Positions 1-42,003 of a stretch of 64,000 nucleotides of DNA are shown here, in pieces. This stretch comes from Albugo candida (taxonomy: Eukaryota): NCBI GenBank assembly GCA_040437565.1, contig JBDOQK010000008.1, positions 434,001 through 498,000 of the forward strand. Reading direction: 5' to 3'. The translations under genes were made by a program, and so were the position numbers. The notes under the pieces are model-generated. The model was not told the DNA's origin and did no database searches. It worked only from the letters and a program-made list of their open reading frames with translations. Numbering within the stretch: the first letter of the stretch is position 1; each line of letters begins with the position of its first letter.

Positions 1-220
1 TTGCGGATGGATACACGCGCAGTCAATCGCACGATAGTGAGCGCTCTCCATAAGTATCAAAACAGTATCTGATACCATGAGGCAATATCTGATTCGCAGT
101 TAATAGCGATCGCATGCTTCCATGCAATAATGAAAATAGACTCTGGGCAATGTCCTAATTAACGCTATTATAGAATTCGCAATACACCAACAGACACAAC
201 CTTTTCATTGCATTGATTCG

Positions 221-2568
221 ATGAACCAGTATCCAGAGATATCCTCTGATAAAAGTTCCATTCAGAGACAATCAGCGAAGCAATTAGAAGCGTTGCTTTT
301 AAACTCCAAAGGCGCTGAGAAAAACGATCTTCAAAATGAGACTTGCATTTTAGATGCCGACTTTCTGATTGCGCAAGCAGGAAACTACGATCTAAACGCC
401 ACGAAAGAGGTTTGCTTGCTTCTACTCTCCTCAGCATAATTGCTCACATATTGTATCAGCTAATTCTTCGCGAAGTTGGAATAACAGACATTGATCCGCA
501 TTGTGCGCAAGCGCTCTTCTCCTTAGAGATACTCTCTTTATCACACAATCGTCTATCCTCTTTGGATCACTTTCACCACTTTGTCAATCTCATTGAAGTA
601 ATGCTCACTCCGATAACTATCGTGTGCTCTTGAGATATCATTTTGTTTCAGCTCAACTTAAATTTCAATCGAATTTCTTCATTGGAGCCTCTTAAGGTTG
701 TCAATTTTGCATCCTTGTCAGCTTCGATCTGCTCATTTTCATCCATAGTGCACGCAATTGGAGAAGCTCTTTGTCGCACACAATGAGGTATGAAGCCATG
801 TCGAACTGGTTGAGGCTTTGGCTAGTAGTTTCTGCAGATTACCGATCTATCTCCGATAAGATCTTTCTCCAAGCTGACGACACTTTGTGTATTTGGGAAT
901 CAATTGAGTAATCTAGAATCTGTATTACATGTTTGCCGGGCGCTACCAAAGGTGAGGAGCTGTTGGGTGCAATAGAGGATTGCTTGCTTGAGCATTTACG
1001 AAAGTCTTTAGCTGCAATCTCTCGACATTGGAGATAATCCATCCACACGACAAAATGCTCGGAATCCGGAAGAGAGCAAAGGTGCAACGCGATACAAATT
1101 CACTATCATACGAAATCTTCCTCGACTGAGACAATTGGATGGTGATTCGATCACACGACTCGATAAAGACCTTGCTGATGAAGAGGTGGAAATGCTTGGT
1201 GAATGTGATAACAATGAGTGCAGCATCCCTCCTCCACGGCCAATAACTGGTAATAAATGTCTTGCGAGCGCCCAGACTCGAAATCCAAGTGGTACGAAGG
1301 TTCGTTGGTCGATTTAACATATCCATTCATTTGTGCTTCTTGATAGCATTCGATCCCTTTTCGAGTGAAGAAATGCCACAAGGCAACGTACGCTTATTTC
1401 GCGATGAATATCTCAACAATCACCCGATTTTGCTGGGATATCTCGCTAAAAGTGCCGATGGAAGCGTAGATGAATCCATAACGGCACCTCGCCGGGAAAG
1501 CACTTTAGAGGCGTCAATGAGTGCGAGAAATGGAGCTGGCTTTGTTGAGCGAATGCGGAACGCAAACTCGGAGATGGATGATTCTAATCTACTCCAAACG
1601 GAAGAAAGGGATTTGGAGGATACGGGACGTTCCACGCCGATCTTGGATTTAGCAAACGTCAGTATGCAGACGACCCATTCTGCCGTAGATCCTTCCGACC
1701 CGAACACAACCATACGAAAGCTCGTTAATCATATTGAACGGCTCCAAGTAAGCAACCCTTTTTTACTTCATCTCATTGATCTTGATCGACAAATTGTTAG
1801 GTAAAGATTGAAAAGCTTCAAAGAGATCCTCTCAGTCATTCTTACGATCTTCTTCGAGAAGAGAACAAAAGACTTTTGCTCGAGAATCGCAATATTTCCA
1901 TTCTCCAGCATGAAATATGTCAGCTGAAAGAGCGTCCATCAACCGCACATTGCAATGGAGGCGACACAACACGGCTAAAATCGTTGGAGGTGCTGAGCAA
2001 GCTGCCAGATTTACTTTCTATCCACATTCTATATGGTTGTAGATCGAAAATGCTCAATTGCATCGAGAAATTCATCGCTTGCAGATGCTGGCAACGAATG
2101 ATCCCGGAGTGGAAAAATCCAAAACGACTCTCTCTTCCGATCAAGAGGTTCTGATAAAATTGCGTGATGTTCGTGACTTGACTCTCCACTTTAGCTGTTG
2201 CATGATTCTTCAACTTTTGATTTGGAACTCACAGAATTGATCATGCAAAATGAAGTCTCCCTGGATATAATTCGCAAGGTCTGCAATTTCCAATGAAACG
2301 ATTCACTGTACTGACGTCAAATCGATCGTAGGAAATCACCGCAACGAAAAGAGAGTGGGAAGAAGAATACCTTCAGTCGAAACCATCACGCCATATAACT
2401 CCATCAAGCATAATCCGTCCGTCGACTTCACTCGGATTCCGCGACGATAAATCCCCGACCATATCAAATCGGGTTTCCATGCTTCCAAGAAAACTAAATG
2501 ACCACCATTTAACGTCAAACGGGCCAACAATTCACCATATCCAAATGACAAAGCCGTCAGAGCATTAA
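221..2568 (+). CDS. Multi-exon leucine-rich-repeat protein with C-terminal coiled-coil region
   Basis: Spliced reading gives SDS22-like LRR units (LEILSLSHNRLSSL, LNLNFNRISSL, LEKLFVAHNEITDL, LTTLCVFGNQLSNL). GT-AG introns at 410-459 and 598-651 keep the frame. Later exon boundaries and the stop at 2566-2568 were inferred by eye. Confidence 0.65.
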
Positions 2569-2751: not shown

Positions 2752-4731
2752 ATGGTCGTTTACAACTTCAAAAAGATCCAAAAGATCCCTTCCGCAACGG
2801 ATTTCATTGATATTGTGTTGACGCGTACACAACGAAAAACTCCGACCATTATCCATCCCACATATGCTATTTCTCGCATCCGGGCCTTCTACATGCGCAA
2901 GGTCAAATTCACGCAACAAACATGTCAAGAGAAGCTCACCCAGATCATCGACGATTTCCCCCGACTTGATGATTTGCATCCGTTTTACGCTGATTTGATC
3001 AATATCCTCTACGATCGCGACCATTACAAGCTCGCATTAGGCCAAATCAACACCGCTCGAGCGCTGATTGATACGATTGCCAAAGACTACGTCCGGATGC
3101 TCAAGTATGGTGACTCCCTGTATCGATGTAAGCAACTGAAACGTGCAGCTCTTGGTCGCATGTGCACATTGCTGAAGAAGCAAAAAGCTTCTTTGGAATA
3201 CTTGGAAGAAGTTCGAAAACATCTGTCCAGGTTACCGTCAATTGATCCCAATACGCGGACTTTGCTCATCACAGGCTTTCCAAATGTGGGCAAATCCAGC
3301 TTCATGAATAAGATTTCTCGAGCCCAAGTCGATGTGCAGCCATATGCATTTACCACCAAAGCGCTGTATGTCGGTCATTTTGACTATAAGTACCTCCGTT
3401 GGCAAGTCATTGATACCCCAGGAATTCTGGATCATTCACTGGAGGAACGCAACACGATCGAAATGCAGGCTGTTACCGCGTTAGCTCATTTGCAGGCATC
3501 CATTCTATTTTTTCTCGATATCTCTGAACAGTGTGGTTTCACTATTGACCAGCAAGTGAGCTTGTTCCATAACATTCGACCTCTATTTGCCAATAAACCG
3601 CTTCTTTTGGTCGCCAATAAAATCGATCAAATAAAGTTGGAAGAATTAGCACAAGAGCACCAAGATTTGATCCATAAAGCTGTTGAAACCACGGAAGCGA
3701 CTTTGTTCACAATGTCCAACCACAGCGAAGAGAATGTTTCCAATGTGAAAAATGTCGCTTGTGACCAACTTTTGGATCATCGTGTTGGAATGAAAATGAA
3801 GGGAAACAAAGTTGGCAATGTGTTGAATCGATTGACGGTCGCAATGCCAGTTCCTCGTGATGATGTCAAGCGCGAAGCCTCGATTCCCACCTCTGTCATC
3901 GATATGAAAGAAAATCCATCGCTCCAGAGCACTCGTGTCTCGCAAAAGGAGATCAGTGATGCAAACGGAGGTGCTGGTGTCTATTCAATGGACTTTCGCG
4001 GTCATTACAAAGGAATGCTCAAAAACGATGACTGGACCTCGGATCCAATTCCTGAAATTTGGAATGGCAAAAACATCATGGACTTTATTGATCCAGATAT
4101 ATTAAAAAAATTGGACATGCTCGAACGAGAAGAAGACGACGCCATGGAGAATGCAGCCACATCGATGGAGGACGATGACGATGGAATGGACGACTTGGAT
4201 GAAGATCAGAAGTCGCAATTGGCACAAATCAGAGAAAAGAAGGCCATTATTGTGGCACAGCATCGACAAAACAAAAATAAAAATCGGTCTAGCGTACCTC
4301 GCAAATTCCTTTCCAGACAAAGAAGCCTTTCCTCCACCAAGAAAGATCTGGAAGCTCTTGGGATCGATACGAGCAGGATGATGAATGCTGGGGAAGTAGC
4401 TGCTAAAGGAAAAGCTGTTGAGAAGAGTCGAGGACGGAAACGGCATCGTGATGACGATGATGTTGAGATGGAAGATGTCCAAGATGCTGGTAAGCGCGCA
4501 AAGCTGGTCTCCAAATCGCGAAATCGATCCCAATCACTGGTACCTCCACGTGATAAAAGCGGGTTCCGTGATGAAAGTGCTGCCCGGCAAGCGACAAATG
4601 CTGCTCGGCAATCACAACGGAAACGGAACAAGAAAGCGCAAGCCGGAGAAGCAGATCGTCGTACGGTTCCAAAGCTTGCAAAATGGCAGAATTCAGGAAA
4701 GCGGAAGCAAGGAACCACACGATCCCGTTAG
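2752..4731 (+). CDS. NOG1: Nucleolar GTP-binding protein 1 (60S biogenesis GTPase)
   Basis: N-terminus MVVYNFKKIQKIPSATDFIDIVL, G1 GFPNVGKSS, G3 DTPG, G4 NKID, NOGCT-like GGAGVYSMD...DFIDPDI, and a basic C-terminal tail. Single exon, 659 aa. Confidence 0.97.
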   Translation: MVVYNFKKIQKIPSATDFIDIVLTRTQRKTPTIIHPTYAISRIRAFYMRKVKFTQQTCQEKLTQIIDDFPRLDDLHPFYADLINILYDRDHYKLALGQINTARALIDTIAKDYVRMLKYGDSLYRCKQLKRAALGRMCTLLKKQKASLEYLEEVRKHLSRLPSIDPNTRTLLITGFPNVGKSSFMNKISRAQVDVQPYAFTTKALYVGHFDYKYLRWQVIDTPGILDHSLEERNTIEMQAVTALAHLQASILFFLDISEQCGFTIDQQVSLFHNIRPLFANKPLLLVANKIDQIKLEELAQEHQDLIHKAVETTEATLFTMSNHSEENVSNVKNVACDQLLDHRVGMKMKGNKVGNVLNRLTVAMPVPRDDVKREASIPTSVIDMKENPSLQSTRVSQKEISDANGGAGVYSMDFRGHYKGMLKNDDWTSDPIPEIWNGKNIMDFIDPDILKKLDMLEREEDDAMENAATSMEDDDDGMDDLDEDQKSQLAQIREKKAIIVAQHRQNKNKNRSSVPRKFLSRQRSLSSTKKDLEALGIDTSRMMNAGEVAAKGKAVEKSRGRKRHRDDDDVEMEDVQDAGKRAKLVSKSRNRSQSLVPPRDKSGFRDESAARQATNAARQSQRKRNKKAQAGEADRRTVPKLAKWQNSGKRKQGTTRSR

Positions 4732-6260: not shown

Positions 6261-9200
6261 ATGTCACTAATTGGAAGGAATGCACCGCCTTTAGCTGCGA
6301 AAAATTCGGGATTCCGCGTACAACTGACAGACAGCGAGTCCTGCAACCGTTCCAAATGGATCTTCACTCAAGGATACGAATTTTCTCGATCTGAAGAGCA
6401 GTACTTTCACGACAACATATTTCCTCAACTTCGATTGAGGCAAAAAACGCAGTTCCGCGCCATTTCCAAATGCGCTCCAAGGAAACAAACAGATATCATC
6501 TTGAAACAGCGTACGAAACCACGAATAGAGAGAATCCTACGTGCTTTATCTTCCTGCTACAATGAAAACGAACAGAAATCGCAGCATAACGACGCAGAAT
6601 GTTTGTATCCATCAGAGCTTTTGGAAGCCTGTCGATATGTAAATACGTTGGAAGACGCACTTTTGTTCATTGCGTTTCAAAATACAAGGGATACTCTTCC
6701 TAAATCGCTCTCTGTATCGCGTCTTATTACATTAAAACCTTTAAAAAAAGCTCTTGAAAAAGAGCGTTCTAATACAATAAAACAGGTCTCAATCACTACT
6801 TTGGATGGCTCACTGCGAATGAGAGAATGTGACACGGATACATGGCGCAAAGAAGCTATTCAAAGTCGAAAGAATCAAATGGAAGAGGTGCATTTGTCAT
6901 CCTCCAAGCAATGGACCAAGCAATTTCTACAGCAGGCGGAAGATCACGATACTGGAGAGAAGCTTCTACAGCAGAGAGAAATAGAAAGTCTGGAATTGGT
7001 GTATTTGTCGCTGAAAAGCGATTTGATGGGTCTGAAGAACGACACGAAGAAGAATAAGAAGAAAAGGAGGGAAAGGCTCAAAATTGAGATCGAAAATACA
7101 CGTTTGCAATTGCTCCAACTTGGATGGGAAAGCACGAAAACGGATGCAGCAGAAGCACAACAACAGAGAAGTCGGAAAAAAGCTGCAGAAAAGGTCGAAG
7201 AGGTTGAAATGATGCTGGGATGCTTCATGGACACTGATGATGAGGCGATTCCAGAACAGCATGAGGCCCCTATCGAAATCACTTGCCCCGATCTCGAGAT
7301 TCCTGAAAGCTGTCTCCTGAAAACCCCGCAGCTTCACCTGTCTGAATTCTGCCAAAAGCAGCATTATCGGCCTCCGGAGTACCATGAGATATCTATCAAA
7401 CCGCACGGTCGTCACCTTTACTTTATCTCCATCAAAGCTGAGCAAGTATGTGGGAAAAAACATTCCAAGCGATTTATATCGAAAAAAGGTTTTGGAGTGT
7501 GGAAAAACGAAGGCAAAACAACGGTATTCGAGTGCCGGATTGACAGTATCTCGGATGCGCAGGCGCAATTATACGCGACACAAGGATTCGCTACAGCTGT
7601 ACAAGCTAAAAACTATGTGTCTGCGTGCGCTTTATTCGCATTAGCACCTGATCTTCCTTTATACCGCGTCCTACCTCCACCATTCCGAGCAATTTGGCTT
7701 GGATTTCTCGATGCGGAAAACATGGAAACGACAATCGCACTGAAAGGGAAGAAAGAACGAATGGAATCTCTGCTGGATGAACTTTTATACACCGTTCCAG
7801 ACGAATTCCTCAGCGATTTTTACTCGCCAACAGAAGACGTTAAGGATCTGATTCCCATTGAAGACGACAAGTCTTTGGAAATTCGGAATTGGCAAGTCGA
7901 TGACTGGGATGCTGATTTATCTGGCGACTATATCGAACGGCCAGTGTGTCGAGACCCTCCTCCTGCAACACAGACAGATTGGACGGATCGGGTAGCGAGG
8001 CCTCATCACTGCTCAACAGATCGATTTCGTCGACTTAGAGACCTCGCGCTTGGAAGACTGACTTCTTCACAGCATAAAGCTCATATCAAAACACGAGAAG
8101 AGCTTCCCATCAGTCAATTTCGCTCGATAATTTTGGAGACATTGGCTCAATACGATATTATGCTTTTGTGTGGAGAAACAGGATGTGGAAAAAGTACTCA
8201 AGTTCCGCAAATGCTTTTGGAGTCTTTGCTGAAGGATACACATGCAACAGATTGTTTTCATATCGTGTGCACGCAACCACGTCGTCTTGCAGCTATGAGT
8301 TTGGCTTCTCGAGTGGCTTTGGAGCTTGGAGAGGATCCACGAACGGCTCGATTGGGATCCACAGACTCTATCTGCGGCTATCACGTTCGATTTGATCCAA
8401 GAGTACACGATCAAACGCGGCTTGTTTTTTGTACAGTTGGCATTCTTCTTCGTCAGCTGCAATCGGACTCAATCAGCTCCCACGTCACTCATCTGATAGT
8501 CGACGAAATTCACGAACGCGATGTTCAGACGGATATTCTGCTCACATTATTGAAACAGCTTCTCATCAAACAGTCCAAGTCACAGGTGTCGAGGCTCAAA
8601 GTAATTCTCATGAGCGCTACCGTCCAAGCGAGCACCTTCCAGTCGTATTTTGGAGGTGAACATGCGTGTCCAATGCTCACAGTTCCGGGCAAACTTTACG
8701 AGGTCCAAGAGCTTTTCCTAGAAGACGTGCTGGAAAAAACTGGATTCGTTGCGTTCCGAGATGTCCAGGAAGACTCTGTGGAACAGGAGGTGCAAGTACG
8801 TGTCACCGGAAAGGGAGGCAAGTCGTACACAGAAACGCATTCGTGGCAGGAAAAGATCGTATCAGCTTCTGGTGTGTGCTCGTTGAGCGGGTACAGCGAT
8901 CAAACATTACAGTCCTTACGCGATTTGGATCCATTTGATGAGATTCCGTACGAGCTGATCACGCACGTTATCGCGTATTTGGTGAGCAGCAATGACGCGA
9001 GTTTGGACACCTCTGACTCGGTCTCTATTTTGGTATTTCTGCCTGGAACACATGAGATCATGATGCTGCTCAATCTTTTGGACAATCATTCAGTTCTCAG
9101 AGACCAAATTGAGCTGATTCCATTACATTCTTCGCTTTCAGCCAAAGCCCAACAACGCGCTTTTGATGTGTCATCCCACCAGCGTCGAATTCGTGTCATT

Positions 9201-10631
9201 ATTGCGACCAATATCGCTGAAACTTCACTGACAATCCAAGATGTTCGTGTGGTAATTGACTCAGGCCGCGCCAAAGAATTGCGTCATGATCCAATTCATC
9301 GGACGAACGTGCTGGAAACTGTTTGGATCTCACAAGCCAATTGCAAACAACGTAAAGGCCGCGCTGGACGTACGAGTGCTGGACTTTGTTTGCGACTGTA
9401 TCCGTCGTACGTTATGGAATCAATGCCTTTACAGCCTGTGCCTGAGATCCAACGAACATCGCTGACGTCCTTGTGCCTCGACATCTTTGTATTAATGGGT
9501 GAGACCACGTCAACTTGCTACCAGGAATTCTTAGACCAGTGTTTGGACCCTCCTAAAGCTGGATTTGTGGCTGATGCATTGCAAGAGTTGAATGGTATTG
9601 GTGCGTTGGAAAATGTTGTGATCAATGGCGAGCCTACGGAGCGTCTTACACATCTTGGAAGATATTTAGCAGCACTTCCAATGGACGTGAAAGTGGGGAA
9701 AATGCTCGTCTTGGGCGCTGTTTTCAATGTGTACGATGCGATGGCCACGTGTGCGGCCATTTTCGAGTCAAAATCGCCTTTTTTGGCGCCATATGAAGCA
9801 CGCAAAGAAATGCAAACAAGTCAACAGAAATTTTCAACCGGTCTTAGCGACGTGCTCACACAAGCTGCAGCATTTGAGACCTGGGAGGAAGCTTTCTCAA
9901 ACTCCAAATCGGACGTGAAGGAAGCGGTATTTTGTCGGCAGCATGGGTTGGATCGATTGAGTTTGCGTACAATTGCAAAGCTGAAGACCCAATTCACATC
10001 ACTCATGGAGCGACTCGGCTTTGTCCGAGCTCCAATCCGGCATACCCGAGTCCAGAGTCACATTCCGATCCTTACAGCTTTGCTGTATGCGAGCCTTGCA
10101 CCGAATCTTGTGGTGAACGTGCCGACCGAGAAACTCGCATGGCGTGATGCTCAGCAGAATATCGCGTATATCCATCCAGCCTCTGTGAATCATGCTCGGA
10201 ACGGACACTCCAACCTGTCCCTGAGAAGCTTGCTGAAGCGTGGACTCTGCACGCTGTTTCTCACGTTCCATGTCCGACTAGAGACTTCGCGTGTGTATCT
10301 CCCGTCCACGAGCTTTGTCACACCCGTCATGCTGATTCTCTTCAGCGCTAATGTATCGCTCGATATTCAATTATCGAATGAGAAACAATCGGTGGACGTT
10401 TATCGACTCATTGTGGATGGATGGATTGCATTAGAATGTTCGCTTCGATCAGCGATGCTTTTGATGGGTATGCGTCAGGTCACACAGGAGCTTTTGGCTG
10501 AACGAATACAAAGTCCCCGACACAAGAGAGCCTCTGAGGATCATCCTGACGACGTGAAAAGCTTGGAAGCCGTCACGCGTCTCTTACAGAATGAGTACGC
10601 GTACTACTTTTCCAGCGTGGAAGACAGATAA
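6261..10631 (+). CDS. DEAH/RHA-family ATP-dependent RNA helicase, DHX29/DHX57-like
   Basis: GETGCGKST, TQPRRLAA, DEIHER, MSAT, ATNIAETSLT, QRKGRAGR, HA2 and OB-fold (IHPASVN) regions. The N-terminal dsRBD-like segment (TPQLHLSEFCQK...LYRVLPPPFRAIW) is typical of the DHX29/57 group. Confidence 0.9.
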   Translation: MSLIGRNAPPLAAKNSGFRVQLTDSESCNRSKWIFTQGYEFSRSEEQYFHDNIFPQLRLRQKTQFRAISKCAPRKQTDIILKQRTKPRIERILRALSSCYNENEQKSQHNDAECLYPSELLEACRYVNTLEDALLFIAFQNTRDTLPKSLSVSRLITLKPLKKALEKERSNTIKQVSITTLDGSLRMRECDTDTWRKEAIQSRKNQMEEVHLSSSKQWTKQFLQQAEDHDTGEKLLQQREIESLELVYLSLKSDLMGLKNDTKKNKKKRRERLKIEIENTRLQLLQLGWESTKTDAAEAQQQRSRKKAAEKVEEVEMMLGCFMDTDDEAIPEQHEAPIEITCPDLEIPESCLLKTPQLHLSEFCQKQHYRPPEYHEISIKPHGRHLYFISIKAEQVCGKKHSKRFISKKGFGVWKNEGKTTVFECRIDSISDAQAQLYATQGFATAVQAKNYVSACALFALAPDLPLYRVLPPPFRAIWLGFLDAENMETTIALKGKKERMESLLDELLYTVPDEFLSDFYSPTEDVKDLIPIEDDKSLEIRNWQVDDWDADLSGDYIERPVCRDPPPATQTDWTDRVARPHHCSTDRFRRLRDLALGRLTSSQHKAHIKTREELPISQFRSIILETLAQYDIMLLCGETGCGKSTQVPQMLLESLLKDTHATDCFHIVCTQPRRLAAMSLASRVALELGEDPRTARLGSTDSICGYHVRFDPRVHDQTRLVFCTVGILLRQLQSDSISSHVTHLIVDEIHERDVQTDILLTLLKQLLIKQSKSQVSRLKVILMSATVQASTFQSYFGGEHACPMLTVPGKLYEVQELFLEDVLEKTGFVAFRDVQEDSVEQEVQVRVTGKGGKSYTETHSWQEKIVSASGVCSLSGYSDQTLQSLRDLDPFDEIPYELITHVIAYLVSSNDASLDTSDSVSILVFLPGTHEIMMLLNLLDNHSVLRDQIELIPLHSSLSAKAQQRAFDVSSHQRRIRVIIATNIAETSLTIQDVRVVIDSGRAKELRHDPIHRTNVLETVWISQANCKQRKGRAGRTSAGLCLRLYPSYVMESMPLQPVPEIQRTSLTSLCLDIFVLMGETTSTCYQEFLDQCLDPPKAGFVADALQELNGIGALENVVINGEPTERLTHLGRYLAALPMDVKVGKMLVLGAVFNVYDAMATCAAIFESKSPFLAPYEARKEMQTSQQKFSTGLSDVLTQAAAFETWEEAFSNSKSDVKEAVFCRQHGLDRLSLRTIAKLKTQFTSLMERLGFVRAPIRHTRVQSHIPILTALLYASLAPNLVVNVPTEKLAWRDAQQNIAYIHPASVNHARNGHSNLSLRSLLKRGLCTLFLTFHVRLETSRVYLPSTSFVTPVMLILFSANVSLDIQLSNEKQSVDVYRLIVDGWIALECSLRSAMLLMGMRQVTQELLAERIQSPRHKRASEDHPDDVKSLEAVTRLLQNEYAYYFSSVEDR

Positions 10632-13332: not shown

Positions 13333-14193
13333 ATGCCATCGACGACAGGAAGAATGCGCATGCCACATAATAATCGAATGCACAGCAGTCTGACGCTGAA
13401 AATGACTGGAATGTGGAAAAATACAATCGGATACGATCCTTATGCTGCCTCGGTACCTTTATATCAGTGATCTGCTGCTTTTATCTTCTTAAATGATCGC
13501 GATAGGACGAAGGAGTTCAAGACAGCGAACTGGCTCAGGATCAAGCAAAAGGGCTCATGGCACTGGCAAAACTATCGAATCAAAATGTAATGCGCATTGA
13601 GTAGCCGTCAAGAGTTGTACAAAGCTGAAATAGAGGCATTTTGCGTAGACACAAAGTCGTGGAGCTTGTAAAAAGGTAAGGAATTCAAAGAGAGAGATGA
13701 GCGATTTGAAGAGTAATTTCTATTCAGTGCGGTATGATCGGTCATCTGACGTACCAATGTCGCAATCATCTACTGGATCAGCCAAAAGCAGTTTCCGTCA
13801 GTTCCTTTGCTTATTAGTTATTTCGAGAGTTTTTGTCTCTTACAAAGTATGCAGGAATCAAGCGATGATTCTGATTCGGAAAGCGAGGAGAGTTCAAGCA
13901 GAAGCCCATCAATTGAAAGTTCTCGTCATGCAAAGGGTAAAAGGAAAAGGTCTAGTCATCACAAAAAGAACACTTTGAAAACGAAAGAGATTCGATCATT
14001 CAAGGCGTCTAAAGATCGAAGGCGGATAGATCGAAGGCATACAGACTCCGATTCTGACACCGCGGGTGCAAGCTCTCACCGAAAACGCCGTCGTCGTGAC
14101 TCTGATGACATTAGCAGGAAGAAGCAATCAAAACAACGAAAGTCGTCAAATACTAAGAAACGAAAACATCGACATCAATCGAGAGACATATAA
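13333..14193 (+). CDS. CXIP4: CAX-interacting protein 4-like zinc-knuckle protein with Ser/Arg/Lys-rich tail, multi-exon
   Basis: N-terminus MPSTTGRMRMPHNNRMHSS...IGYDPYA matches the CXIP4 family pattern. The spliced RGACKKCGMIGHLTYQCRN is a CCHC knuckle. Confidence 0.85.
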
Positions 14194-14631: not shown

Positions 14632-17202
14632 CTATTTTTTATTGAGTCCGACCGAAAGAAGTAATGGGAAATTCAGACGACGCGGTATAAACCATGAAAG
14701 TAAAACCAATACGCTCAGTGCGAGTGCCAATGCAAAATATAACGCATTGGTATCGAATGGGAATGGATACCCCAAATACGCAAAGGCTGCAAATAGCGCA
14801 GGCGCTCCACTACCGCCCAATACGATGGCCCCATAACTGATCACGTGAGTCAGACGATACACCATCAATCGGCGATCTGCTGGTATGGAATGATCCAACA
14901 GCGTTGAGAGCGCCGATTGTGCGATTGCGCCAGTCAAATGCTTTCCCAACATAATCAAAATCACCAAAAGTGGGGTCATGGCCACATGATTGATATCGAG
15001 AATGGCAAGCAATGGGAAACAACACATTATGGGAATCTGCATCATTAAACCCAGTCGAAGTATGGCTAACGGTGTCATGATTCCTGTTGAGAGGCATCGG
15101 CCAAGAAGTATGCGGCACAGACCGACCAGGAGCGGAGTAAGCGTCATGCAAATGGTCACCATCAGCACTGGAGAAGTAATTGGATCGATCTTGCTCGGAT
15201 GGGAAGAAACTTTAGTGAGAAATGTGACCGAGACGGATTGAATTGATAGACTTTCTTTCTGGTTTTTGATAAACCATAACGGAAGAACGTCGTCAAATCC
15301 AGCTTGCAGCGAGAACCACACACCTGTCAAAATAAGAATCAAACCAGCATTAGGATTTTGCCGAGATACAAGACGGCAAAGGTCGAAATCAGTCGGTCGT
15401 GAGAATGGTCGGGATGAGAATGAAACCCGTGCTTCTACTTTACGTTTGAAAACATCATCCATGAAACGTTCTGGCTTCTTGGACAATAGTCCTTTTCGAG
15501 ATTGTTTGCCGGCGTCGACGTCAATTGCAATCGCATGTTGTATCTCCGACGTTACGACATCACACTCTTGCTCGATATTTTGTAGACCGTACTCGTTACA
15601 GTCAAAAAACGCTTCTTCATCGCTGTCCTGCTCGTCCAAATAACCTTCAGATGCCAACAACCGGTTGTGTCTACCGATGATTTCCTTGGTCTTTTCGAGA
15701 GACCCTGTCGTTTGCATCCAAAACAAAGCAAAATCACTCTCCAAATCACTTTGACCAAGTTCGACTGTATCTTTTCCACCGTATTTTGCAGGAAGCGCAT
15801 GTATTCCGACCCATTTTAGCAGTTCTTGCTTCGTCAAGTCTTTTGTAATAATATTCATTTTTTTCAGCGTACTGGCAGCCACATGAAGACGCACTTGTGC
15901 CACGACTTTAGCGTTGAACCATACCGGAGCATTTATTACTAAAAGCTTGTACAATATTCCTGGGAAAAGCTGCTGAAGAGTTTTGGATATCATAGGCACC
16001 GCTTCCATGGGCCATCCTTCTGTATCGAGCAAAGTCAGTCCATTCAAGTCGATTATGTACACAATGTGCTTAGTATTGCGACGCAATTTAAGCAAAGCGT
16101 ACTCGATAAAATATCGATAGTGAGCACAGAGATCCAGCGTCGAAAATCCAGAAGACAGAAGCTTCTCACTCTTAATCTGACCAACGCAATCCCACAACAC
16201 TACATGTCCGTCCTTGGTGTACCCTTGATAATAATGAGGAATAATGCTTCGAATCGTCTCAAAATGTGGGTTTGGTTGCCAAATCACACTTTCCTGATAC
16301 GATTCAGGTGCATTTTGACGGCCCAATACATTCTTGCCGGCATGTTGCGTATGATCTTCCAATATTTGCGTCTTTCTATTGCTATTGTTTGCTTTGTCAT
16401 TCGCTTCATTAAGACTTGAGTTCGTGAACTTTGGCTTCTCCAAAGATACAGACTCTGACTCGAAATGAAAGTCGTCTCGTGAGGCTACTGGGATATATGC
16501 TGCCGTTGTATGGTTAGTGTTCAACTGCAATCCAACCATTGTAATAACAACAACGGACCACGCAGCCATAGACACCAAAGTGAACGGGTAGTAATAGAGC
16601 TTCATCTGCAATTTATCGGCTTGCGAGCGAGTCAAAACGTCATGCTCCACCGTCAGTTCAAACCCCCCCAATACCGTCACATATGTCATCAGAGCCCCCA
16701 GAAATATTCCAACATATCCGCTGATTGTGGCCAAATGCGACTGCCGATTTCTATGGTTCCAAATAAAGCATCAATATAATAGAGTCACATCGATTTAAGC
16801 ATACCCGCAAATTTCATCTATTTCAGTCAAAGCACTTGGAATCACACCCGTAAATATTCCCGTGACGATGCGGGTGAAGACAACTTGTACAAACGATTGA
16901 CAAAGGAGTAAGCCAAAAAATCCCAAACCGATACTCGCCAAGCCAAATAAAATGATCCCTTTGCTGTATAGTGTGATCCGCGAGTACTTGATCCAAACCG
17001 GACTGCTTAGCAAGTGGCCGATATAACTCGCAAATGATAAAATAGCGGTATACATTCCAAGAAGAGTGTACAAAGTATCAGGATAGAAATGGAAGACGAT
17101 CAATGGGCTGCATAAAAAGAAGACGGTGTGTGATATGTGTTCCATCACGACACATCCCATTAGAAATAAAAGGCGGCCATTGTATTCCTGACACCAGCTC
17201 AT
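14632..17202 (-). CDS. MFS-fold 12-TM membrane protein with a CRAL-TRIO (Sec14) domain inserted in the central loop
   Basis: Two exons (ORFs 16795-17202 and 14632-16734 joined by a GTATGC...TAG intron). Six hydrophobic helices precede and six follow a Sec14-like segment (PHYYQGYTKDGHVVLWDCVG...IIDLNGL...QQLFPGILYKLLVINAP...LPAKYGG). Confidence 0.85.
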
Positions 17203-17447: not shown

Positions 17448-20281
17448 CTAGAAAAGGTTGACCTCTTTTTTCTTTGCTTGTTGTTTCCATTTAGGAAGTT
17501 TGATGTAATCTGCTCTGGATACTTGAAACACTTTCTTAAATTCTTCTTCGGAAAGGTACGACTAGGAAAAGAAAAGAGAAGTTAACCACAGTCAGTCAAA
17601 CCACAATTGCTTACCTCGCGAGCAGTCAGATCGATGTTGTCCACCCCCGCTAAAAGTTGCTCGTAAGAATACGACGATTTTACAGTCTCATTCCGATCTC
17701 CAGAAGAGCTTTTTTGGGTAAGATCGGCCGCTTCCATACTTAAGTTCGGTTCTCCGGACGCTTGACCCTTTGTGGAGACATCATTTGCCTCCTCGTTCTT
17801 CTCACCTGAGACCTTTTCCTTGTCTCCTGAGACGTTCCCCTTGTCTGTTGAGACTACTTCCTTTTTAGCAAATACCATTTCTTTTTCTGCGAGAAGCGTT
17901 TCCTTTTCTGCAGTCAGCTTTTCTTTTTCTGCAGCGAGTAATTTCAATTTAGTTTGATATGGGTCTATGAAATCGTCTTGCTGAAAATACTGGTCGTCCC
18001 ACGCTAAAAAGTGGCCTTTGAATGTAAGGGGCTCACAGCCGCAATGTGTGGCGATTACAGGAATGTCGTCCCCGCGCCCATCGCTCTGTACCGTCTGCAA
18101 ATATCTGTCAGCCAAAATGTAAGTATTTTGGACTTCTCCTCTATTCGCATTTTTCCCAATCCAAATGTACAGAGCCGCATACGTGTCCAAAAGAAATACA
18201 TCGTCTTGTGTCAAATCATCCTGCGCAAATTCGACGATTTCTGTGACGTCGAAATTCCCACAAACATTTGTACAGTGAAATAGACGGGAAGGACGTGGAC
18301 GATCGAATGTGAATGTAGCATTTGTAGGAGCAGCCTGACCGCCTAAAAGATCCCAAAACTCGTCTGATTCCTCGTTTTCATTGATCATTGTGATCTCTTC
18401 AGTTTTTTGCATATGCTTTGCTATAGTGCAAGAGACTTGAAACTCCAATTCTGTACTTCCACTTCCTCGCCACACAAATATTTGCTCTATTGATTTCGCA
18501 ATAAAACAATCGCCACAGTAGAGATTGGAGGCTTTGGGTTCGACTTCTGTTGCCATTATGTTTGCCTCAGTGGTTCCTCGTACATGGAAAAGCAGAACAT
18601 CCTGTGTACTGATGTCACTTTCCAACACGTCTCGGACTTTTCCACCCTTCCTGACAATCATTCGACCTTGAAATAATCGACGGAAATCGCTCGGTTCTTT
18701 CCCTTGGACCACACGGATCAAAGCTGATGTATTTCTCAATTCTTCTCCGAGTTGAAATGCGATCATTGCGGAAGCCGCTTTTTCATCAGTTGAGGACTGA
18801 CGACCTTGCCAAAAGTAAATCAAGCTCTTAAGTGATTGTGAGCCGTGTGTGGTCGAAGTTGGCATTCCTGAACACAGTATCACGTAGCTATCACCCCCAT
18901 AGAAAACACCGTGGAATTCGCGTGGGATCTCTACTTTCTCCAGATCCTCTATGCGCCAAACTTTCAGCTCAATATCAGCACCGATTTTAGATTCGCCTTC
19001 GTGTTGTTCTTTGGAAGAAAGAGAATGTCCTCCATTGACCAACAACACGACGTCTACGTCATGTCCACTTGCTTTCTTTGACAAAGTTGCAGGCTTTTGG
19101 GTTTCAGTACCGGTAGAGTGTGAATCCCAGCTTTTGAATAAACTTTTAAAAAGTACTGATTCCGCTTCTTCCACTACCCGAGTGATTGGAATCTGACTTG
19201 AATGTTTCCTGTCTCCGCGAAGAAATTGCATCGCAATCACCATCGACTTCTTCCTTGTATCGATCGAGACGCCATGACCTACCCAGACATACAGAATTGA
19301 AGCAGTGTCCACCAAGTAGATGTTTTCTTTCTGTAACAAAGCCTTTGTCAGAATGCCGTTCTGAGTCGTCTCGTTAATAAATTTGACATCGTCTTCTGAG
19401 CTGACCAGCACACGGTAGAACTTCGTACTAGTCTTAGTAGCCTCGCTGAATTTTTCGTCAGTTTGTTTTGGAACCGCACCACTCACATCGATGTAACCTC
19501 CCAACGAGCTCCAAAATGTCTCATTGTCTGGTTCATCATCCAAAAGAGTAATTTGACTTTTCCCTCCCCTTTCTTCACTCCGAAGCCTGAGTATGAAATC
19601 CAACCCTTTTGCCTTTTCAACAATACTCGCTTCTCGTCCATTGTATAAAAACAGCTCGTCGTACATATCAAGAACGTACACATCATTGCAGTTTAAGGAG
19701 GTATTCTTCACAGGCACTTCGCAGATCCGAACCACATGCTTCCCCTTGATTTGATACAGCTTGGATGTTTTGTCGGCATCTTTTACAGAAGCAACAGGGA
19801 CCAATCCACTCGAAACTCCTCCAGGCAAATACACAAGCGAGCCCGCTTCTTTAAAGTACGAAAGGAAGAGAGGCTACAATTGAAAATAAAAATGTAAACA
19901 ACTTCAACTAAACAATCTGATTCAGGTCTACCGATTCTCGTCCTTGACACTCACGATACTCCACAGGTGAGCCATCCAGCGCATCATCTAATTCAACGCT
20001 TTTGTAGGCAGCAACAAACTGTTCATCAGTAGAAGTCTTATTTCCAAGCCAAAAGTGTATATTCCATGAGAATCCACTACATTTTTTAATTATAAGCGGT
20101 ATTCTGCCTAATTGGTATTCTACCTCTTATGCTGATTTGTTTTCAGAAAAATGTAGCTATCGCCCGTACAGAGTCTGTTGATGAGCTCATAGGGGATCTC
20201 TACTAGTTTCATTTTTTCCACTCTCCATGCTCTCAGTCCTATTTCCTTCCCAGCATCGGTGAACGCAGCGTCGATAGACAT
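17448..20281 (-). CDS. VIL: Villin (gelsolin repeats plus villin headpiece), multi-exon
   Basis: Gelsolin repeats (GLRAWRVE, GDSYIFL, FWLGNKTSTDE, VWRIE, FYGGDSYV, FAQDDL). The last exon encodes the headpiece YLSEEEFKKVF...LPKWKQQAKKKEVNLF*. Confidence 0.93.
17795..17932 (-). repeat. Degenerate 21-bp (7-aa) tandem repeat in the villin linker
   Basis: AEKEKLT AEKETLL AEKEMVF AKKEVVS TDKGNVS GDKEKVS GEK, visible in both DNA and protein. Confidence 0.7.
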
Positions 20282-20352: not shown

Positions 20353-21407
20353 TCAGACCATACCGGTAGTGTTATGATACTCTCGAATAGCAGAAGGAGC
20401 TATTAAGGAGAATGGCGAGACAAGCACATCAAATGCTTCTTCTTCGCTCCGTTTGGGTTGAGATGTTTTGCTTATGGTATGTAAAACGCCACTCACACTA
20501 CCAAGTGGAGCATCAATGTCGACACCGCTTGCATACTGGAACGTCTGACCAGGATAAAGGATTGGAGTGCACCCAACAATTCCAGGAGATCCACGAGGAA
20601 GCACATTCCGCTGACCAGATGCACTATTGAATGTATATTGCCTTCCAAGTATTTGATACGGACACTCCTTGTCTGCAGAGATATCAAGGTCAAATTGGAA
20701 TTCCACAAACGATTTCGACGTACTGTTATTTGTGATTGTTATTCGATATGTAAATCGATACAAGTTCGGAGTCTCTGGTGAAGCATCATCTACATATTGA
20801 CTAGTGGCTTCCACGCGGATACCGTTTGTGACCGAGACTACATCAGGCTCAATTTAACAACAAAGCTTTCGGACGTCCGTATAGCCATAAGCCATACCAC
20901 TAGAGCATTTTGCGAGTAAAAGCTGGTCTGAAACTTCCTGTAGCGCGCTAACAATGCCATCTTAAAATTCGATCAATCATCATTGAACCAGTACGCTTTT
21001 ACCGTATCGCCTCGTCTAGCTTTAAAGCGATCAGCTACGGCCCATTTTAGAATCGTGTAATAGGAATACCGGAAATATTAGATGAGCTCATTTACATTAG
21101 TATCGCTGATATGCGCATTTTGCCTGAATCCCTGGCGAATCATTTCGTATATTCTATTGGCTATGATTGATCCATCATCAACTTGCTCGATATCGTGGAA
21201 TTTCTTCTTCTTTGACGCAAAGATGTCTTCCAGACCCTGAAAATCTTCAAAGCGTTTTTTTCTATTGTCTCTTGGCGCATTCAGGAAATCGCCTTTGCCC
21301 CACTGCTCAGTCTGTAGTGGTGCACGTAATGTAAAATGCGGTGTATTTTTGAAAAGTGCTGCATCTCGCAGTAAGCACTTGTAGATAGAAATGACAGAGT
21401 TTCTCAT
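20353..21407 (-). CDS. ApaG-domain protein with N-terminal LYR-like segment, multi-exon
   Basis: C-terminal ApaG signature (YRFTYRITITN...QILGRQYTF...GIVGCTPILYPGQTFQYASG). The N-terminus VISIYKCLLRDA...IRQGFRQN resembles LYR-motif proteins. The start abuts an N gap. Confidence 0.75.
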
Positions 21408-21508
21408 ANNNNNNNNNNNNNNNNNNNNNNNNNNNNNNNNNNNNNNNNNNNNNNNNNNNNNNNNNNNNNNNNNNNNNNNNNNNNNNNNNNNNNNNNNNNN
21501 NNNNNNNN

Positions 21509-22533
21509 ATTTTCGGAAAAAACATTATACTCGACAAGGACTCTGTGCGTGTCACTTTTGTAATATGTACATGCTTTTGGATCTGGGAGGTAAATAATCT
21601 CGATGAAGGCTGCCATATTTTGATATATTTTAGCTTGAAGCGGTTAGCCTCCATGATCGCAGCGTAAAGGAGTTGCACAACTTGTTCATGTTCGCAATCC
21701 ATTCGTGTCCGTAGTACATAAAGGGTTGCTTCTTTGAAATCTAAAGCCCACACGATAAATGCGTCAGCATTTATTCGATACCCGCATGCTAATTGACTTT
21801 GAGGATGGAGCGCTCTTGATTCTGCGTAGTACTGCCCAATGCAAAACTGCCATTCAATTGAGTCAAATGTAGGAATGGTTAGAAATACGTCTTGACTGAA
21901 AAGAGCTTCGTCGTCGAGAAGCTGTCGTTCAATGCGTTCAGCATCTTCACGAAGAAGAATATCAAGCTGTTTATCCAGGAAAAGCATATTTTTTTCATCA
22001 ATGCCGGACTTAACGGGAATGTCCATTGAGTCCAAGCAAATGACGGCTGACTCGGACGGATATGCTTTCCAACCGAGCTTGGTGTAGTAACTCGACCCAA
22101 TATCTGAATAAAGCGCGGACGCAATTGCCTTTGGACGAGATGCGAGAACTTTGGCAACTTGCTGTAAGAAATGAGTAGCATACCCACATTTACGATAGGC
22201 TGGTAATGTGAACACAGAAGCGATGTGATACGAATATCCACGCCTAATTTGTTGGCTTTCAGATGACTTCAGCATACAATCAAAACGATGTACTTCACAG
22301 TGACAGATAATGTTCATCTTAGAGCCATTTTCCTCTGTATTATTCGCTAAAAGCCCAAAAAAGATCGACTTATCGCGAGAAAATCGAGTGGATCGTTGTA
22401 TCTTTTCCTTTATTTGGTATTCTTCCTGGCTCCAAAAAGGCTGTCCCCACTCCTGGTAATCGTTGATCTTGCACTGAACCTTGGCTTCCTCGGAACTTAG
22501 CTCCACAAAGCGAGCTTGCTCGAATTTCAGCAT
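21509..22533 (-). CDS. GNAT-family N-acetyltransferase (LYC1-like), 3' end lost in gap
   Basis: IASVFTLPAYRKCGYA acetyl-CoA-binding motif A and SALYSDIGSSYYTKLGW. The ORF runs into the N gap at 21409-21508. Confidence 0.8.
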
Positions 22534-22674
22534 ATTGCTTTCCAAATCGCGACTATAAATTTGCGTGTGATACATCAAATTTATTGTACGCGCACTGCTC
22601 TCGTGATATCCCTCGACTGATAAGAAGGCACAAACAAATAGTACAGCAGCTCGACTGTGACTTATTTTCCATTC

Positions 22675-40242: not shown

Positions 40243-42003
40243 CTATTCAGTCCTTTTCTGAGCATCGAATGCTAATTGTTCCCAGTTTGCATGACACAAC
40301 CAATATATACAATAGACGCCTCCGGACATCATCCCACAACACATACCCAGCCACAAACCAGCCAGTCCCAATTTCAATTGCTCGGCCATAAACATTCCGA
40401 AAGGCAGGGTGATCACAATGAAGGCAGCAAAATTGAGTCTAGCACCAACATTTTGTAGCCCGGCTCCTTGAAATATTCCTTGAATCGCAGCTGTTAGTCC
40501 TACAAATATCTGAAAGGGACAAGTCAACAGCATCAAAAGTGCCGTCAAGCTCACCACATCTTGATCCTTTGTAAACATGGCCGGATATGCGAATCGTACT
40601 CCAAACATCAAGGTAGAAGTGATCAATGCGAACATGATTGCGACACTGGCAGTGATGCGAGCAATTAGGCTTGATTTTTTCGGTTTATTTGCTCCTAACG
40701 CATTTCCAATCCGAACGGATCCAGCCATTGCAACACTCCCATAAAATATCCAGCTGAAGCGTCTAAAACTCGCGTATATCGCGCCCGCGCTCATTGCCAT
40801 TGCTGTGTCAGGTAGTCTTCCCGTGAATAAAGAAATCAAAGCGAATCCCCAGACTTCGAACAGGAACATAAGCAGTCCCGAAAAGCCCAAGCGAATAAAT
40901 TCGGGTAAGATTCGAAAGCATTCATCGAACCGCCATCCTTTCCATTCATCTTTGAAAACGTTGCTTCTGACTACGTATATCAATAAGGTTAGAGTTGTAC
41001 AAACAGCCATTGCACAGGACGCGATGGAACAGCTGATATAGCCCAGAGACGTATGCCACACCAAGATATAAATGACCACATGATGGGCGATATTTCCAAA
41101 GACCCCAGCATAAAGGATCGGCTTGACAATACTTTGACCTTGTAATACTTTGCGTAATAAAACATTAAACACTTGTAGCGGTATGCTGGGTAATGCATAC
41201 AGCACTAGCTCCTGAGCTAGGTAGGCTATAGATGGCATCTGACCTAACGCAATCAAAATCACAGCGGAAAAGCGCGATAGAATGCAAATAGGAATGAAGA
41301 ATCCCACAAAGACAATCAGTCCGGTCTGGAAGAAAATACTCAGCTCGTATAATTTCCCTGCACCAAATGCTTGGGAGCATAGTGTCTCCATTGCTGCAGC
41401 GATTCCCATTGTTATCGTGTACGAAGTTAACACAGTGAATGTGCATGATAGACTCATAGCTGCTAGGAATTTGCTACTATATACAACACTCAATCGTCCA
41501 ATTGCCACATTGGCGACGAAATCCGGGATAAAGTCGAGAATGTAAGACAGCAACTATAATGCGGAGATATATTAGTACTTACCCGAATCATTTTATAAGA
41601 AAAATCTTACCAATCGCACTGCCAGCCACAGCAATTGTGTTGCTTCTTCTTTTACTGACAACGCGGATATTCCGATTGCAGCTGACTCGCCAGTTGGCTC
41701 CAGCAAATACGTCAATTCCGTAGATCTCTTGCCAACATCATTTCGTAAATGATCCAATTGCGCTGATAAGTCGATAACGCGGTGATGACGATACATATTT
41801 CGTTTCTTCTTTCCATGCATTTGAAGCAGCCCAATTTGATCGTTCCGTGCCTTCTTGTGATACACTGGCCGCTTCTCGAATTGACTCAAATCACTGATAT
41901 GTACTCGAGCAGCATCATTGGCTTTTGGTTCACGTGAGACCAAAATGCTATCTGTGTTGAATGTCGCCTTACGTTTCGTGTTAGAGTGTTCCCGAGGCAG
42001 CAT
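40243..42003 (-). CDS. MATE-family efflux transporter, two exons
   Basis: METLCSQAFGAG, FEVWGF, SVRIGNALGA, QGIFQGAGLQ, GLAGLWLG, with a 12-TM pattern and one GT-AG intron near 41557-41610. Confidence 0.92.

Follow-up and report, generated by a model that had tools for sequence, protein, structure and literature searches.

A two-exon gene on the minus strand of the Albugo candida window (the whole 64,000-nucleotide stretch of DNA that was analysed) occupies positions 14632..17202 and brings together a transporter fold, a shuttle domain and a predicted ER-docking motif in one polypeptide. In the AlphaFold model, the membrane part of the protein is a canonical 12-helix MFS fold, and its central loop holds a Sec14/CRAL-TRIO domain followed by a near-canonical FFAT-like motif. 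As judged from the sequences, the protein is a member of a real, unnamed family with an anchored FFAT-type lipid-transfer architecture, which appears to be lineage-restricted, occurring in oomycetes, with motif-less relatives in ochrophyte algae. The general view is that a lipid-transfer protein working at a contact site requires a membrane partner to supply or accept the lipid, and the fusion of the three modules in one chain makes the coupling to such a partner directly testable. The architecture may couple membrane transport with lipid shuttling at organelle contact sites. The reading favoured here, given an even chance, is that the MFS body lies in a non-ER membrane, the FFAT-like motif docks on VAP, the Sec14 domain shuttles a ligand and the MFS core is still transporter-like.

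The coding region, as traced from the open reading frames and the sequence, comprises 838 aa from M1 (ATG at 17202) to the stop codon at 14632-14634. Exon 1 (16805..17202, minus strand) encodes the N-terminus and TM1-TM4, and exon 2 (14632..16750, minus strand) is one open frame that includes TM5-TM6, the loop with the Sec14 domain and the FFAT-like motif, and TM7-TM12. They are separated by a GT..AG intron of 54 nt (16751..16804, minus strand), across which the frame is kept (GG|A, Gly) and whose retention would lead to an in-frame TAA. The protein shares 99% identity with the annotated A. candida protein P0003, which reads ...EIDEICGNRQSHL... at the same splice junction, and two observations back the M1 start: the A. 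laibachii orthologue P0155 is also 838 aa long, and conservation in Pythium extends upstream of M15. Exactly these 54 bases (CT..AC on the plus strand) are absent from contigs of runs X1 and X2, both from one study, and present in contigs of the DNA-like runs X8 and X11; the evidence consists of contigs, and the RNA nature of runs X1-X4 is a guess. The single-gene architecture put forward in the initial annotation is thus borne out, since TM5-TM6, the Sec14 domain, the motif and TM7-TM12 share one ORF and the exon 1-2 junction is present in spliced contigs. A gene-model or assembly artefact fusing separate MFS and Sec14 genes has nothing in its favour except that Pfam by itself detects only CRAL_TRIO on the window protein, and is effectively refuted by the uninterrupted ORF from TM5 to TM12 and the spliced junction, by the MFS halves, which form one fold in the AlphaFold model, and by the same collinear TM-Sec14-TM layout, which recurs in 10 sequences of oomycete type and in at least 15 representatives of ochrophyte type.

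The MFS body was delimited from the model helices and VIA superposition, aided by hydropathy for the N-half (TM1-TM6, 16522..17202, minus strand, split by the intron) and by the conserved residues Q601, D605, R684, Q690 and K722 for the C-half (TM7-TM12, 14695..15354, minus strand). The AlphaFold model, built on a 15-sequence alignment (mean pLDDT 66.5, pTM 0.55), contains 12 long helices, which the central loop divides six and six. A VIA-align run against 48,161 chains returned 98 chains at Z>=8, with SotB (6kki) as the best match (Z 32.5, rmsd 2.9 A, 357/366 target residues, model 1..815), followed among others by SPNS2 (8qv5, Z 31.6), FLVCR2 (9qu4, 30.7), MFSD2A (8d2s, 25.6) and LtaA (6s7v, 21.9). 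Nearly all of the VIA matches listed are named MFS transporters, and the 12 model helices superpose on 12-TM MFS structures, in agreement with the six TM helices, loop and six TM helices originally read from the sequence. The Pfam MFS_1 match that had been looked for did not materialise on the window protein, where exon 1 scored 16.2 bits for MFS_1 (PF07690; E 0.005), below the cut-off of 33.4, and exon 2 gave no match; Sugar_tr was another weak match of exon 1 (E 0.0065). The relative P0154 passes the cut-off (57.2 vs 33.4 bits, E 1.7e-15), as one member among the 15 of the alignment, and the family profile matches NorA (E 3.7e-4). The ESM Atlas offered, as a lead, only MFS_1 look-alike clusters with a score of 0.90, a value that shuffled proteins reach in 4-10 of 100 cases. 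Because the window protein misses the MFS_1 cut-off, its assignment to the MFS is based on the fold and the passing relative. Pfam-based labels such as 'CRAL-TRIO domain-containing' and 'hypothetical' overlook the MFS body of the family, and 15 of the 16 loop-bearing members scanned have no Pfam MFS match at E<=0.001.

The MFS motif A has the consensus G-x-x-x-D-[RK]-x-G-R-[RK]. The TM2-TM3 loop of the window protein (16957..16992, minus strand) reads IKYSRITLYSKG, preceded by W, at this site and is a degenerate motif A, as the initial annotation had noticed, while the Pythium protein reads INMARSLKSAKG. At the aligned site, P0154 has ISDLYGRKRVIL and keeps ISDLYGRKR; P0154 and P0010 retain MFS signatures in canonical form, for instance GRKR and GP. 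In Albugo, Pythium and Saprolegnia, both motif A and the GP motif of TM5 have degenerated, which suggests that the alternating-access cycle may be impaired. MFS proteins further have an arginine in TM4 (motif B), and TM4 and TM10 are each followed by a D/E...R loop. The TM4 arginine R97 is found in all nine sequences covering the position, the window protein has TEIDEICGNRQ after TM4 and LLDHSIPADRR after TM10, D738 and R751 are invariant in alignment A1, and the acidic residue of TM1 is E in Albugo, Pythium and Saprolegnia and D in P0154. Between A. candida and Pythium insidiosum, the two TM halves share 44% and 36% identity, the Sec14 domain 47% and the linkers 15-19%, and the buried polar residues R97, Q601, D605, R684, Q690 and K722 (P0003 numbering) are kept. 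The earlier suggestion that a degenerate MFS fold serves as a mere anchor is weakened because conservation of the TM halves is about on a par with that of the Sec14 domain and the buried polar residues are retained. From these sequence features, the MFS core is probably no inert anchor but a transporter that still works on, or binds, an amphipathic substrate.

The same conservation of the TM halves and of the buried charged residues would also fit the view that the protein is mainly a solute transporter, with the Sec14 domain as a regulating lipid sensor whose occupancy gates or plugs the cytosolic face of the MFS, and with the FFAT motif only limiting where this regulation happens. The canonical signatures in P0154 and P0010, the fusion without FFAT in ochrophyte relatives and the inward-facing states of the top structural matches of the model all fit this explanation, and sensing and shuttling are not told apart by the present evidence. 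However, motif A has been lost in the Albugo-Pythium branch, and the Sec14 domain is flanked at both ends by disordered linkers of about 75-80 residues, which favour a swinging shuttle over a fixed plug. Regulation by a lipid sensor is considered rather doubtful.

The Sec14-like domain spans residues 273-485 of P0003 (15652..16290, minus strand), is folded in the model and was identified by Pfam, by sequence match to Sec14p and by Foldseek. The Pfam CRAL_TRIO core (PF00650) lies at 15775..16233 (minus strand) and covers profile positions 7-153 of 153 (E 2.6e-18, 66.7 bits vs a cut-off of 22.6), and it is present in all ten loop-bearing relatives. Sec14p was matched by sequence at E 3.2e-08, and the family profile matched Sec14 domains at E 1.2e-19 to 1.5e-19. 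Foldseek against the PDB gave 36 matches at E<=0.001, of which those listed, down to rank 34, all belong to the Sec14 family, including 9efp_B (E 3.3e-06, rmsd 2.6 over 183 columns). A CRAL-TRIO domain that looked complete had been placed at about 15770-16260; its presence and position stand, and its completeness is limited to the core covered by PF00650, since Pfam gave no CRAL_TRIO_N match in the window protein at E<=1. The sequence alignments to PDB chains begin at about residue 100 of Sec14p, and the ochrophyte relatives align from residue ~53. In Sec14p, T236 and K239 belong to the PtdIns barcode and S173/T175 to the PtdCho barcode. In this numbering, the equivalents of T236 and K239 are T413 and K416 (R in A. 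laibachii), those of D233 and E207 are not kept, and the S173/T175 positions fall in an alignment gap. The CRAL-TRIO core is like those of Sec14p, Sfh1 and AtSFH5 (1aua, 9efp, 3b7q, 7y10) by sequence and fold (fold match at E 2e-06 to 3e-06), whereas the window domain is embedded in a membrane protein and has no detected CRAL_TRIO_N lobe, and those relatives are soluble.

The domain is held in the 392-residue central loop by two disordered linkers (pLDDT <50), linker 1 at residues 196-272 of P0003 (16291..16521, minus strand; 19% identity to Pythium) and the 75-residue linker 2 from the motif to TM7 (15355..15579, minus strand; 17% identity). Ten residues past the Sec14 domain, within the stretch of pLDDT <50 at 470-571, lies a block at 15580..15636 (minus strand) composed of the acidic tract DEQDSDEE, the core AFFDCNE (15592..15612) and the conserved tail YGLQ; tract and core map to 15592..15636, close to the 15593-15640 first proposed. 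The tract has D/E at six of eight positions and K/R at none. The seven-residue reference core was taken as E-F-F-D-A-x-E or accepted variants. In a previous study on FFAT motifs, position 1 is the least constrained, an AFFDT-D motif targets the ER and loses this targeting upon FF>AA mutation, and A and C are given like scores at position 5 (PMC3261905). A-F-F-D-C-N-E, with A1 and C5 as accepted variants, is accordingly a near-canonical, predicted FFAT motif. All 10 loop-bearing relatives, including those from Albugo, Pythium, Globisporangium and Saprolegnia, retain the block, in which Albugo and Pythium share 78% identity, compared with 15-19% for the flanking linkers, so the FFD conservation among orthologues that the initial annotation had asked to check is found. 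An eleventh sequence, P0007, is an exception with S at the key position 2 (S-F-D-C), where its 90%-cluster mate P0154 has F, and the fragment P0008, on a 1.8-kb contig, has ~120 linker residues before TM7 without the motif. In shuffle controls, randomising the loop 200,000 times produced a motif of this kind twice, and randomising the whole protein 200,000 times produced none.

Conservation of the block runs past the FFAT core (EYGLQ), and the Cys at position 5, where Ala is usual, is invariant; the conservation beyond the core could point to another partner. The acidic F-F-D-C block might thus be a CK2-type phospho-acidic sorting signal or another docking site with a convergent likeness to FFAT, in line with S-D-E-E, which fits the consensus of a CK2 site, and with the different conserved motif AHLG..N.Y.YD that hhalign sets near the same position in ochrophyte relatives. 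This explanation is judged quite improbable, as all FFAT elements are present or accepted variants, a chance match is expected about once in 100,000, and FFAT motifs are typical of lipid-transfer proteins (PMC3261905).

The favoured contact-site reading also depends on the side of the membrane that the loop faces. In canonical 12-TM MFS proteins, the central loop is cytosolic. The cytosolic loop assumed at the outset therefore follows from the MFS fold, with mild support from a K/R count of 11 in the short cytosolic loops vs 7 outside. In Phytophthora sojae, a human OSBP PH-FFAT reporter labels ER-Golgi contacts, so that the oomycete ER appears to read FFAT motifs (PMC13538951). No VAP/MSP gene was seen among the 17 other large ORFs scanned within the window. 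Some ER-resident proteins, such as protrudin, bind VAP in cis. The window protein could likewise be ER-resident, with its Sec14 domain reaching another membrane or its motif clustering ER subdomains; this arrangement shares the motif evidence with the contact-site reading, and no targeting signal for another organelle was identified, but no ER-retention feature was seen either, and ER residence is held to be a low-probability alternative.

A Sec14/CRAL-TRIO lipid-binding domain has been acquired in the cytosolic TM6-TM7 loop of a 12-helix MFS protein. In the favoured contact-site reading, the body of this protein would lie in a membrane other than the ER, its FFAT motif would dock on the MSP domain of an ER-resident VAP, and the protein would as a result concentrate at an ER contact site, where the Sec14 domain, on its two linkers of ~75-80 disordered residues, may ferry a hydrophobic ligand between the two membranes. 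We infer the VAP binding, the host membrane, the ligand and any link of the MFS cavity to the pocket of the Sec14 domain. A more ambitious version, regarded as unlikely, is a single-chain machine whose MFS core would take an amphipathic lipid out of the host membrane, by flipping or extraction, into a cavity open to the cytosol. The Sec14 domain, tethered above this cavity, would receive the lipid directly and carry it over the VAP-bridged gap to the ER, or the lipid would travel the opposite way. If true, the protein would be a natural fusion of a partnership between transporter and lipid-transfer protein that elsewhere involves separate proteins, and such a machine would be of ancient origin within the stramenopiles, the ER tether being an oomycete addition. 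Oomycete lipid-transfer proteins are proven fungicide targets, as with ORP1, on which oxathiapiprolin acts (PMC13538951); given this precedent, a lipid-handling protein confined to one lineage is interesting for practice as well as for mechanism.

STARD3 (MLN64) and STARD3NL have an endosomal membrane anchor and an FFAT-type motif, combined with a START domain. Like STARD3, the window protein combines a polytopic anchor, a VAP-docking motif in a cytosolic linker (predicted here) and a shuttle-type lipid domain. In contrast, its anchor is a 12-helix MFS fold with conserved cavity residues instead of the 4-TM MENTAL domain, its lipid domain is a Sec14 domain inside the central loop of the membrane domain instead of an appended START domain, and its motif is a conventional acidic FFAT instead of a phospho-FFAT; background on FFAT-VAP and phospho-FFAT is given in PMC7705450. 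The Kv2.1 and Kv2.2 channels bind VAP through a non-canonical FFAT motif. They are polytopic transport proteins of a non-ER membrane that are VAP-tethered to the ER, as is proposed for the window protein, but they are ion channels, their motif depends on phosphorylation, and they lack a lipid-transfer domain. SotB, SPNS2, FLVCR2, MFSD2A and LtaA, which are MFS proteins of the DHA1 type or transporters of lipids or amphiphiles, resemble the window protein in the 12-helix fold, the TM4 Arg and the TM1 acidic residue, at an identity of only 9-13%, and the common fold is uninformative on the substrate; unlike them, the window protein lacks motif A and the TM5 GP and has a 392-residue loop with a folded domain. 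PqiA-domain proteins fused to TULIP/BPI-like lipid-transfer domains, the PfTUPA class, also have a membrane module and a hydrophobic-cavity lipid domain in one chain, with unrelated folds on both sides and with no mention of an FFAT motif in the paper describing them (bioRxiv 10.64898/2026.09.11.750981).

The initial annotation knew of no characterised protein with this architecture, and full-text literature searches, whose coverage left out most subscription journals, returned no description of an MFS-Sec14 fusion. Word-index protein searches gave 2, 5 and 1 matches, with no orthologue from Phytophthora, downy mildews or Aphanomyces among the ~8,000 candidates scored per search. The search for the same architecture in other stramenopiles was successful in oomycete relatives and also uncovered the ochrophyte family, in which the canonical FFAT is missing from 17 of 18 relatives by a loose pattern. 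As this TM-Sec14-TM family is without FFAT, the fusion seems to predate the tether motif, or else the motif disappeared in the algae.

The gene at 14632..17202 comprises two open frames on the minus strand, separated by a 54-base spacer with GT at its start and AG at its end, and joining 17202..16805 to 16750..14632 preserves the frame (GG/A, Gly) and yields a product of 838 residues. Splicing of this intron (16751..16804) is confirmed by three results: the annotated A. candida protein P0003 (824 aa, beginning at the second Met), 99% identical to the window protein, reads EIDEICGNRQSHL at the exon junction; the A. laibachii orthologue P0155 has the same length of 838 aa; and contigs from two runs of a single study, tentatively regarded as RNA, skip exactly these bases, which contigs from two DNA-like runs retain. 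Met1 at 17202 is a likelier start than Met15, because the A. laibachii orthologue P0155 (838 aa) has the same N-terminus, MSWCQEYNG, and the residues before Met15 are conserved in Pythium sequences. A conserved Cys or Cys-Cys stands right before TM1 in this segment (17160..17202) and in the N-termini of P0005, P0157, P0158, P0009, and P0085, as MSWCQEY in Albugo and GCCRG[YF] in Pythium-type sequences, in some following Met-Gly; such cysteines may be acylated, which could affect membrane targeting. A single uninterrupted frame spans TM5-6, the entire loop, and TM7-12, and two separate genes, one MFS and one Sec14, are therefore effectively ruled out.

The MFS fold proposed in the initial annotation is borne out by structure and by family matches, whereas Pfam alone is not convincing: on the window protein, MFS_1 scored 16.2 bits on exon 1, below the cut-off of 33.4, and no Pfam MFS match was obtained on the C-half. 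The AlphaFold model, built on the family alignment of 15 sequences, contains twelve long helices (pLDDT 80–90), and VIA-align against 48,161 PDB representatives matched the DHA1 exporter SotB (Z 32.5, rmsd 2.9 A, 357 residues, model 1..815), SPNS2 (Z 31.6), and FLVCR2 (Z 30.7); nearly all of the VIA matches listed are named MFS transporters. Foldseek matched the MFS protein SV2A over the full length (E 8e-04), the relative P0154 clears Pfam MFS_1 (57.2 bits, E 1.7e-15), and the family profile weakly matches NorA (E 3.7e-4). The membrane part is an MFS fold whose TM6-TM7 loop is 392 residues long. Canonical MFS proteins of 12 TM helices have this loop, like their N- and C-termini, in the cytosol, and the K/R count (11 in the short "inside" loops vs. 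7 "outside") agrees only mildly with a cytosolic loop.

The CRAL-TRIO domain claimed in the loop was recovered by Pfam at 15775..16233 (PF00650, E 2.6e-18, profile positions 7–153 of 153). Its best solved relative by sequence is yeast Sec14p (E 3.2e-08, or, when the family profile is used, 1.2e-19 to 1.5e-19), and the Sec14 family ranks first (E 2e-06) in the Foldseek search of the model, where the domain has a pLDDT of 75–85. The CRAL_TRIO_N lobe was not detected by Pfam on the window protein, and the alignments start near Sec14p residue ~100. Residues 196–272, 470–571 (containing the FFAT-like motif), and 619–638 are disordered in the model. A single chain unites an MFS fold with a cytosolic Sec14 domain, which is held by two flexible linkers of ~75–80 residues, and with a conserved FFAT-type motif.

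This motif, L-D-E-Q-D-S-D-E-E-A-F-F-D-C-N-E-Y-G-L-Q (15580..15639, minus strand), follows the Sec14 domain and two conserved helices, ten residues past the domain. At positions 1 and 5, its core, A-F-F-D-C-N-E, departs from the E-F-F-D-A-x-E consensus. Mikitova and Levine (2012; PMC3261905) call position 1 "the least constrained," group A and C together against S/T at position 5, and describe ER targeting by a soybean AFFDT-D motif, abolished by FF>AA. The upstream tract has D/E at six of eight residues and no K/R, and an equally stringent pattern arose in 2/200,000 shuffles of the loop and 0/200,000 of the whole protein. The expected conservation of FFD in orthologues holds in 10/10 loop-containing relatives. 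SDEEAFFDC[NS]EYGLQ is common to both Albugo species, Pythium insidiosum, P. oligandrum, Globisporangium ultimum, and two further sequences, with variants in P0154 (SDSDSDFFDCAEF), P0010 (SDEEDFYECSEYGLE), and Saprolegnia diclina (DDEDAFFDCT); between Albugo and Pythium the block is 14/18 (78%) identical, within linkers at 17–19%. Judged by sequence, the motif is a near-optimal, conserved FFAT type and a putative VAP ligand. Three observations weigh against it: position 2 is S in P0007, ~120 linker residues of the fragment P0008 (1.8-kb contig) lack the motif, and conservation extends into EYGLQ, beyond what FFAT requires. Alternatively, the acidic block may serve a non-VAP function. P0007 and P0154 share a 90% cluster yet differ at position 2 (S vs. 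F), which could reflect allelic variation, paralogy, or an error in sequencing. In Phytophthora sojae, ER-Golgi contacts were marked by a human OSBP PH-FFAT reporter, and the oomycete ORP1 has no FFAT motif of its own (PMC13538951).

As a VAP ligand, the motif would dock on ER VAP while the MFS body resides in the membrane opposite the ER, and the Sec14 domain may carry lipid between both membranes in a manner likened to that of STARD3-type proteins. By our own estimate (about 0.35 nm per residue), 75 disordered residues can be enough for a typical contact-site gap. The MFS cavity might also supply the Sec14 pocket, though with a low probability. The same motif might instead bind VAP in cis in an ER-resident protein, and a further rival is an ordinary transporter regulated by a lipid-sensing Sec14 domain. 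The TM2-TM3 loop reads IKYSRITLYSKG, as first noted in the initial annotation, and INMARSLKSAKG in Pythium, while P0154 retains ISDLYGRKR and the TM5 G-x-x-x-G-P (G-x-x-x-G-A in Albugo); the species-named oomycete branch (Albugo, Pythium) has therefore lost two MFS signature motifs. The suggestion of a mere degenerate MFS anchor is nevertheless weakened, and the MFS body is not drifting: when A. candida is compared with Pythium insidiosum, its N-half is 44% (85/193) and its C-half 36% (79/221) identical, alongside 47% (92/197) for the Sec14 domain, 19% (11/57) for linker 1, and 17% (12/72) for linker 2 downstream of the motif. Intrahelical polar residues are conserved in at least 80% of sequences, namely R97 (TM4; invariant in 9/9), Q601 and D605 (TM7), R684 and Q690 (TM9), and K722 (TM10), which a purely hydrophobic anchor would not need.

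An exhaustive search of representatives returned 624 proteins at E<=0.001 and six at E<=1e-30; outside the oomycete family, whose species-named members are all oomycetes, matches cover the Sec14 part only. A crude hydropathy scan of the matches revealed at least 15 more representatives of 800–1200 aa in which a CRAL_TRIO domain is flanked by TM clusters (P0150, P0069, P0045, P0032, P0022, P0079, P0084, P0038, P0030, P0090, P0058, P0041, P0140, P0134, and P0037). This group outnumbers the oomycete family, and its species-named members are ochrophyte algae (Ectocarpus, Discosporangium, Mallomonas, Chrysophaeum, and Aureoumbra). Pfam found CRAL_TRIO alone in 10/10 tested. The ochrophyte and oomycete profiles are collinear along 692 columns (probability 100%, E 5e-54), a Sec14-driven score, and the N-halves (82.9%, E 9e-06) and C-halves (88.6%, E 2.6e-06) also match when aligned on their own, against 0.1–1.1% in cross-controls. 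The ochrophyte N-half is MFS-like, its profile matching FLVCR2, NorA, and GlcP with E values near 1e-04, and the group retains the CRAL_TRIO_N part, aligning from Sec14p residue ~53. Canonical FFAT is absent from the group, a loose pattern matching 1/18 (P0038, AYYSADE). Past the Sec14 domain, the linker in the ochrophyte alignment carries a conserved AHLG..N.Y.YD.....W(V)L, then E...V.AI.AA, which is not a canonical FFAT; hhalign puts its AHLG..N.Y.YD part close to where the FFAT-like block lies in oomycetes. Given these collinear relatives, the fusion probably goes back a long way in stramenopiles; the acidic FFAT is characteristic of the oomycete branch.

Full-text literature searches retrieved no description of an MFS-Sec14 fusion, in line with the initial remark that no characterized protein of this architecture was known, and databases list the family under "hypothetical," "unnamed," or "CRAL-TRIO domain-containing." Proteins that join an anchor, an FFAT, and a lipid-transfer domain follow a known logic; what appears to be new is that an MFS fold serves as the anchor and houses the transfer domain in its central loop, an arrangement absent from the papers retrieved.

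No MSP/VAP domain was found among the 17 large ORFs of the window scanned. A P4-type phospholipid-translocating ATPase (33990..38996, minus strand, 1668 aa, PhoLip_ATPase_C E 8e-63) lies ~17 kb from the MFS-Sec14 gene, with no reason to suppose linkage in a eukaryote. About 440 bases past the MFS-Sec14 stop codon, on the opposite strand and convergent, is a 114-aa low-complexity ORF rich in Ser/Arg/Lys (13849..14193, plus strand), and a gelsolin-repeat gene (17582..19666) is immediately upstream. The latter is one of eight ordinary housekeeping-type neighbors, with a NOG1 GTPase (2752..4731), a DEAH-type helicase (6261..10631), a LYC1-like GNAT (21307..22575), a MatE transporter (40243..41457), an AMP-binding enzyme (42608..46099), a USP7-like protease (46434..50762), and a RhoGAP (59910..61793). 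The ORF at 24400..25596 (minus strand) encodes both domains of an ATP:guanido phosphotransferase (phosphagen kinase; E 1e-71). An ARID ORF (51597..52691, plus strand) is directly followed by a PHD/JmjC/C5HC2 ORF (52809..56876, plus strand), and the two probably form one KDM5/JARID-type gene interrupted by an intron.
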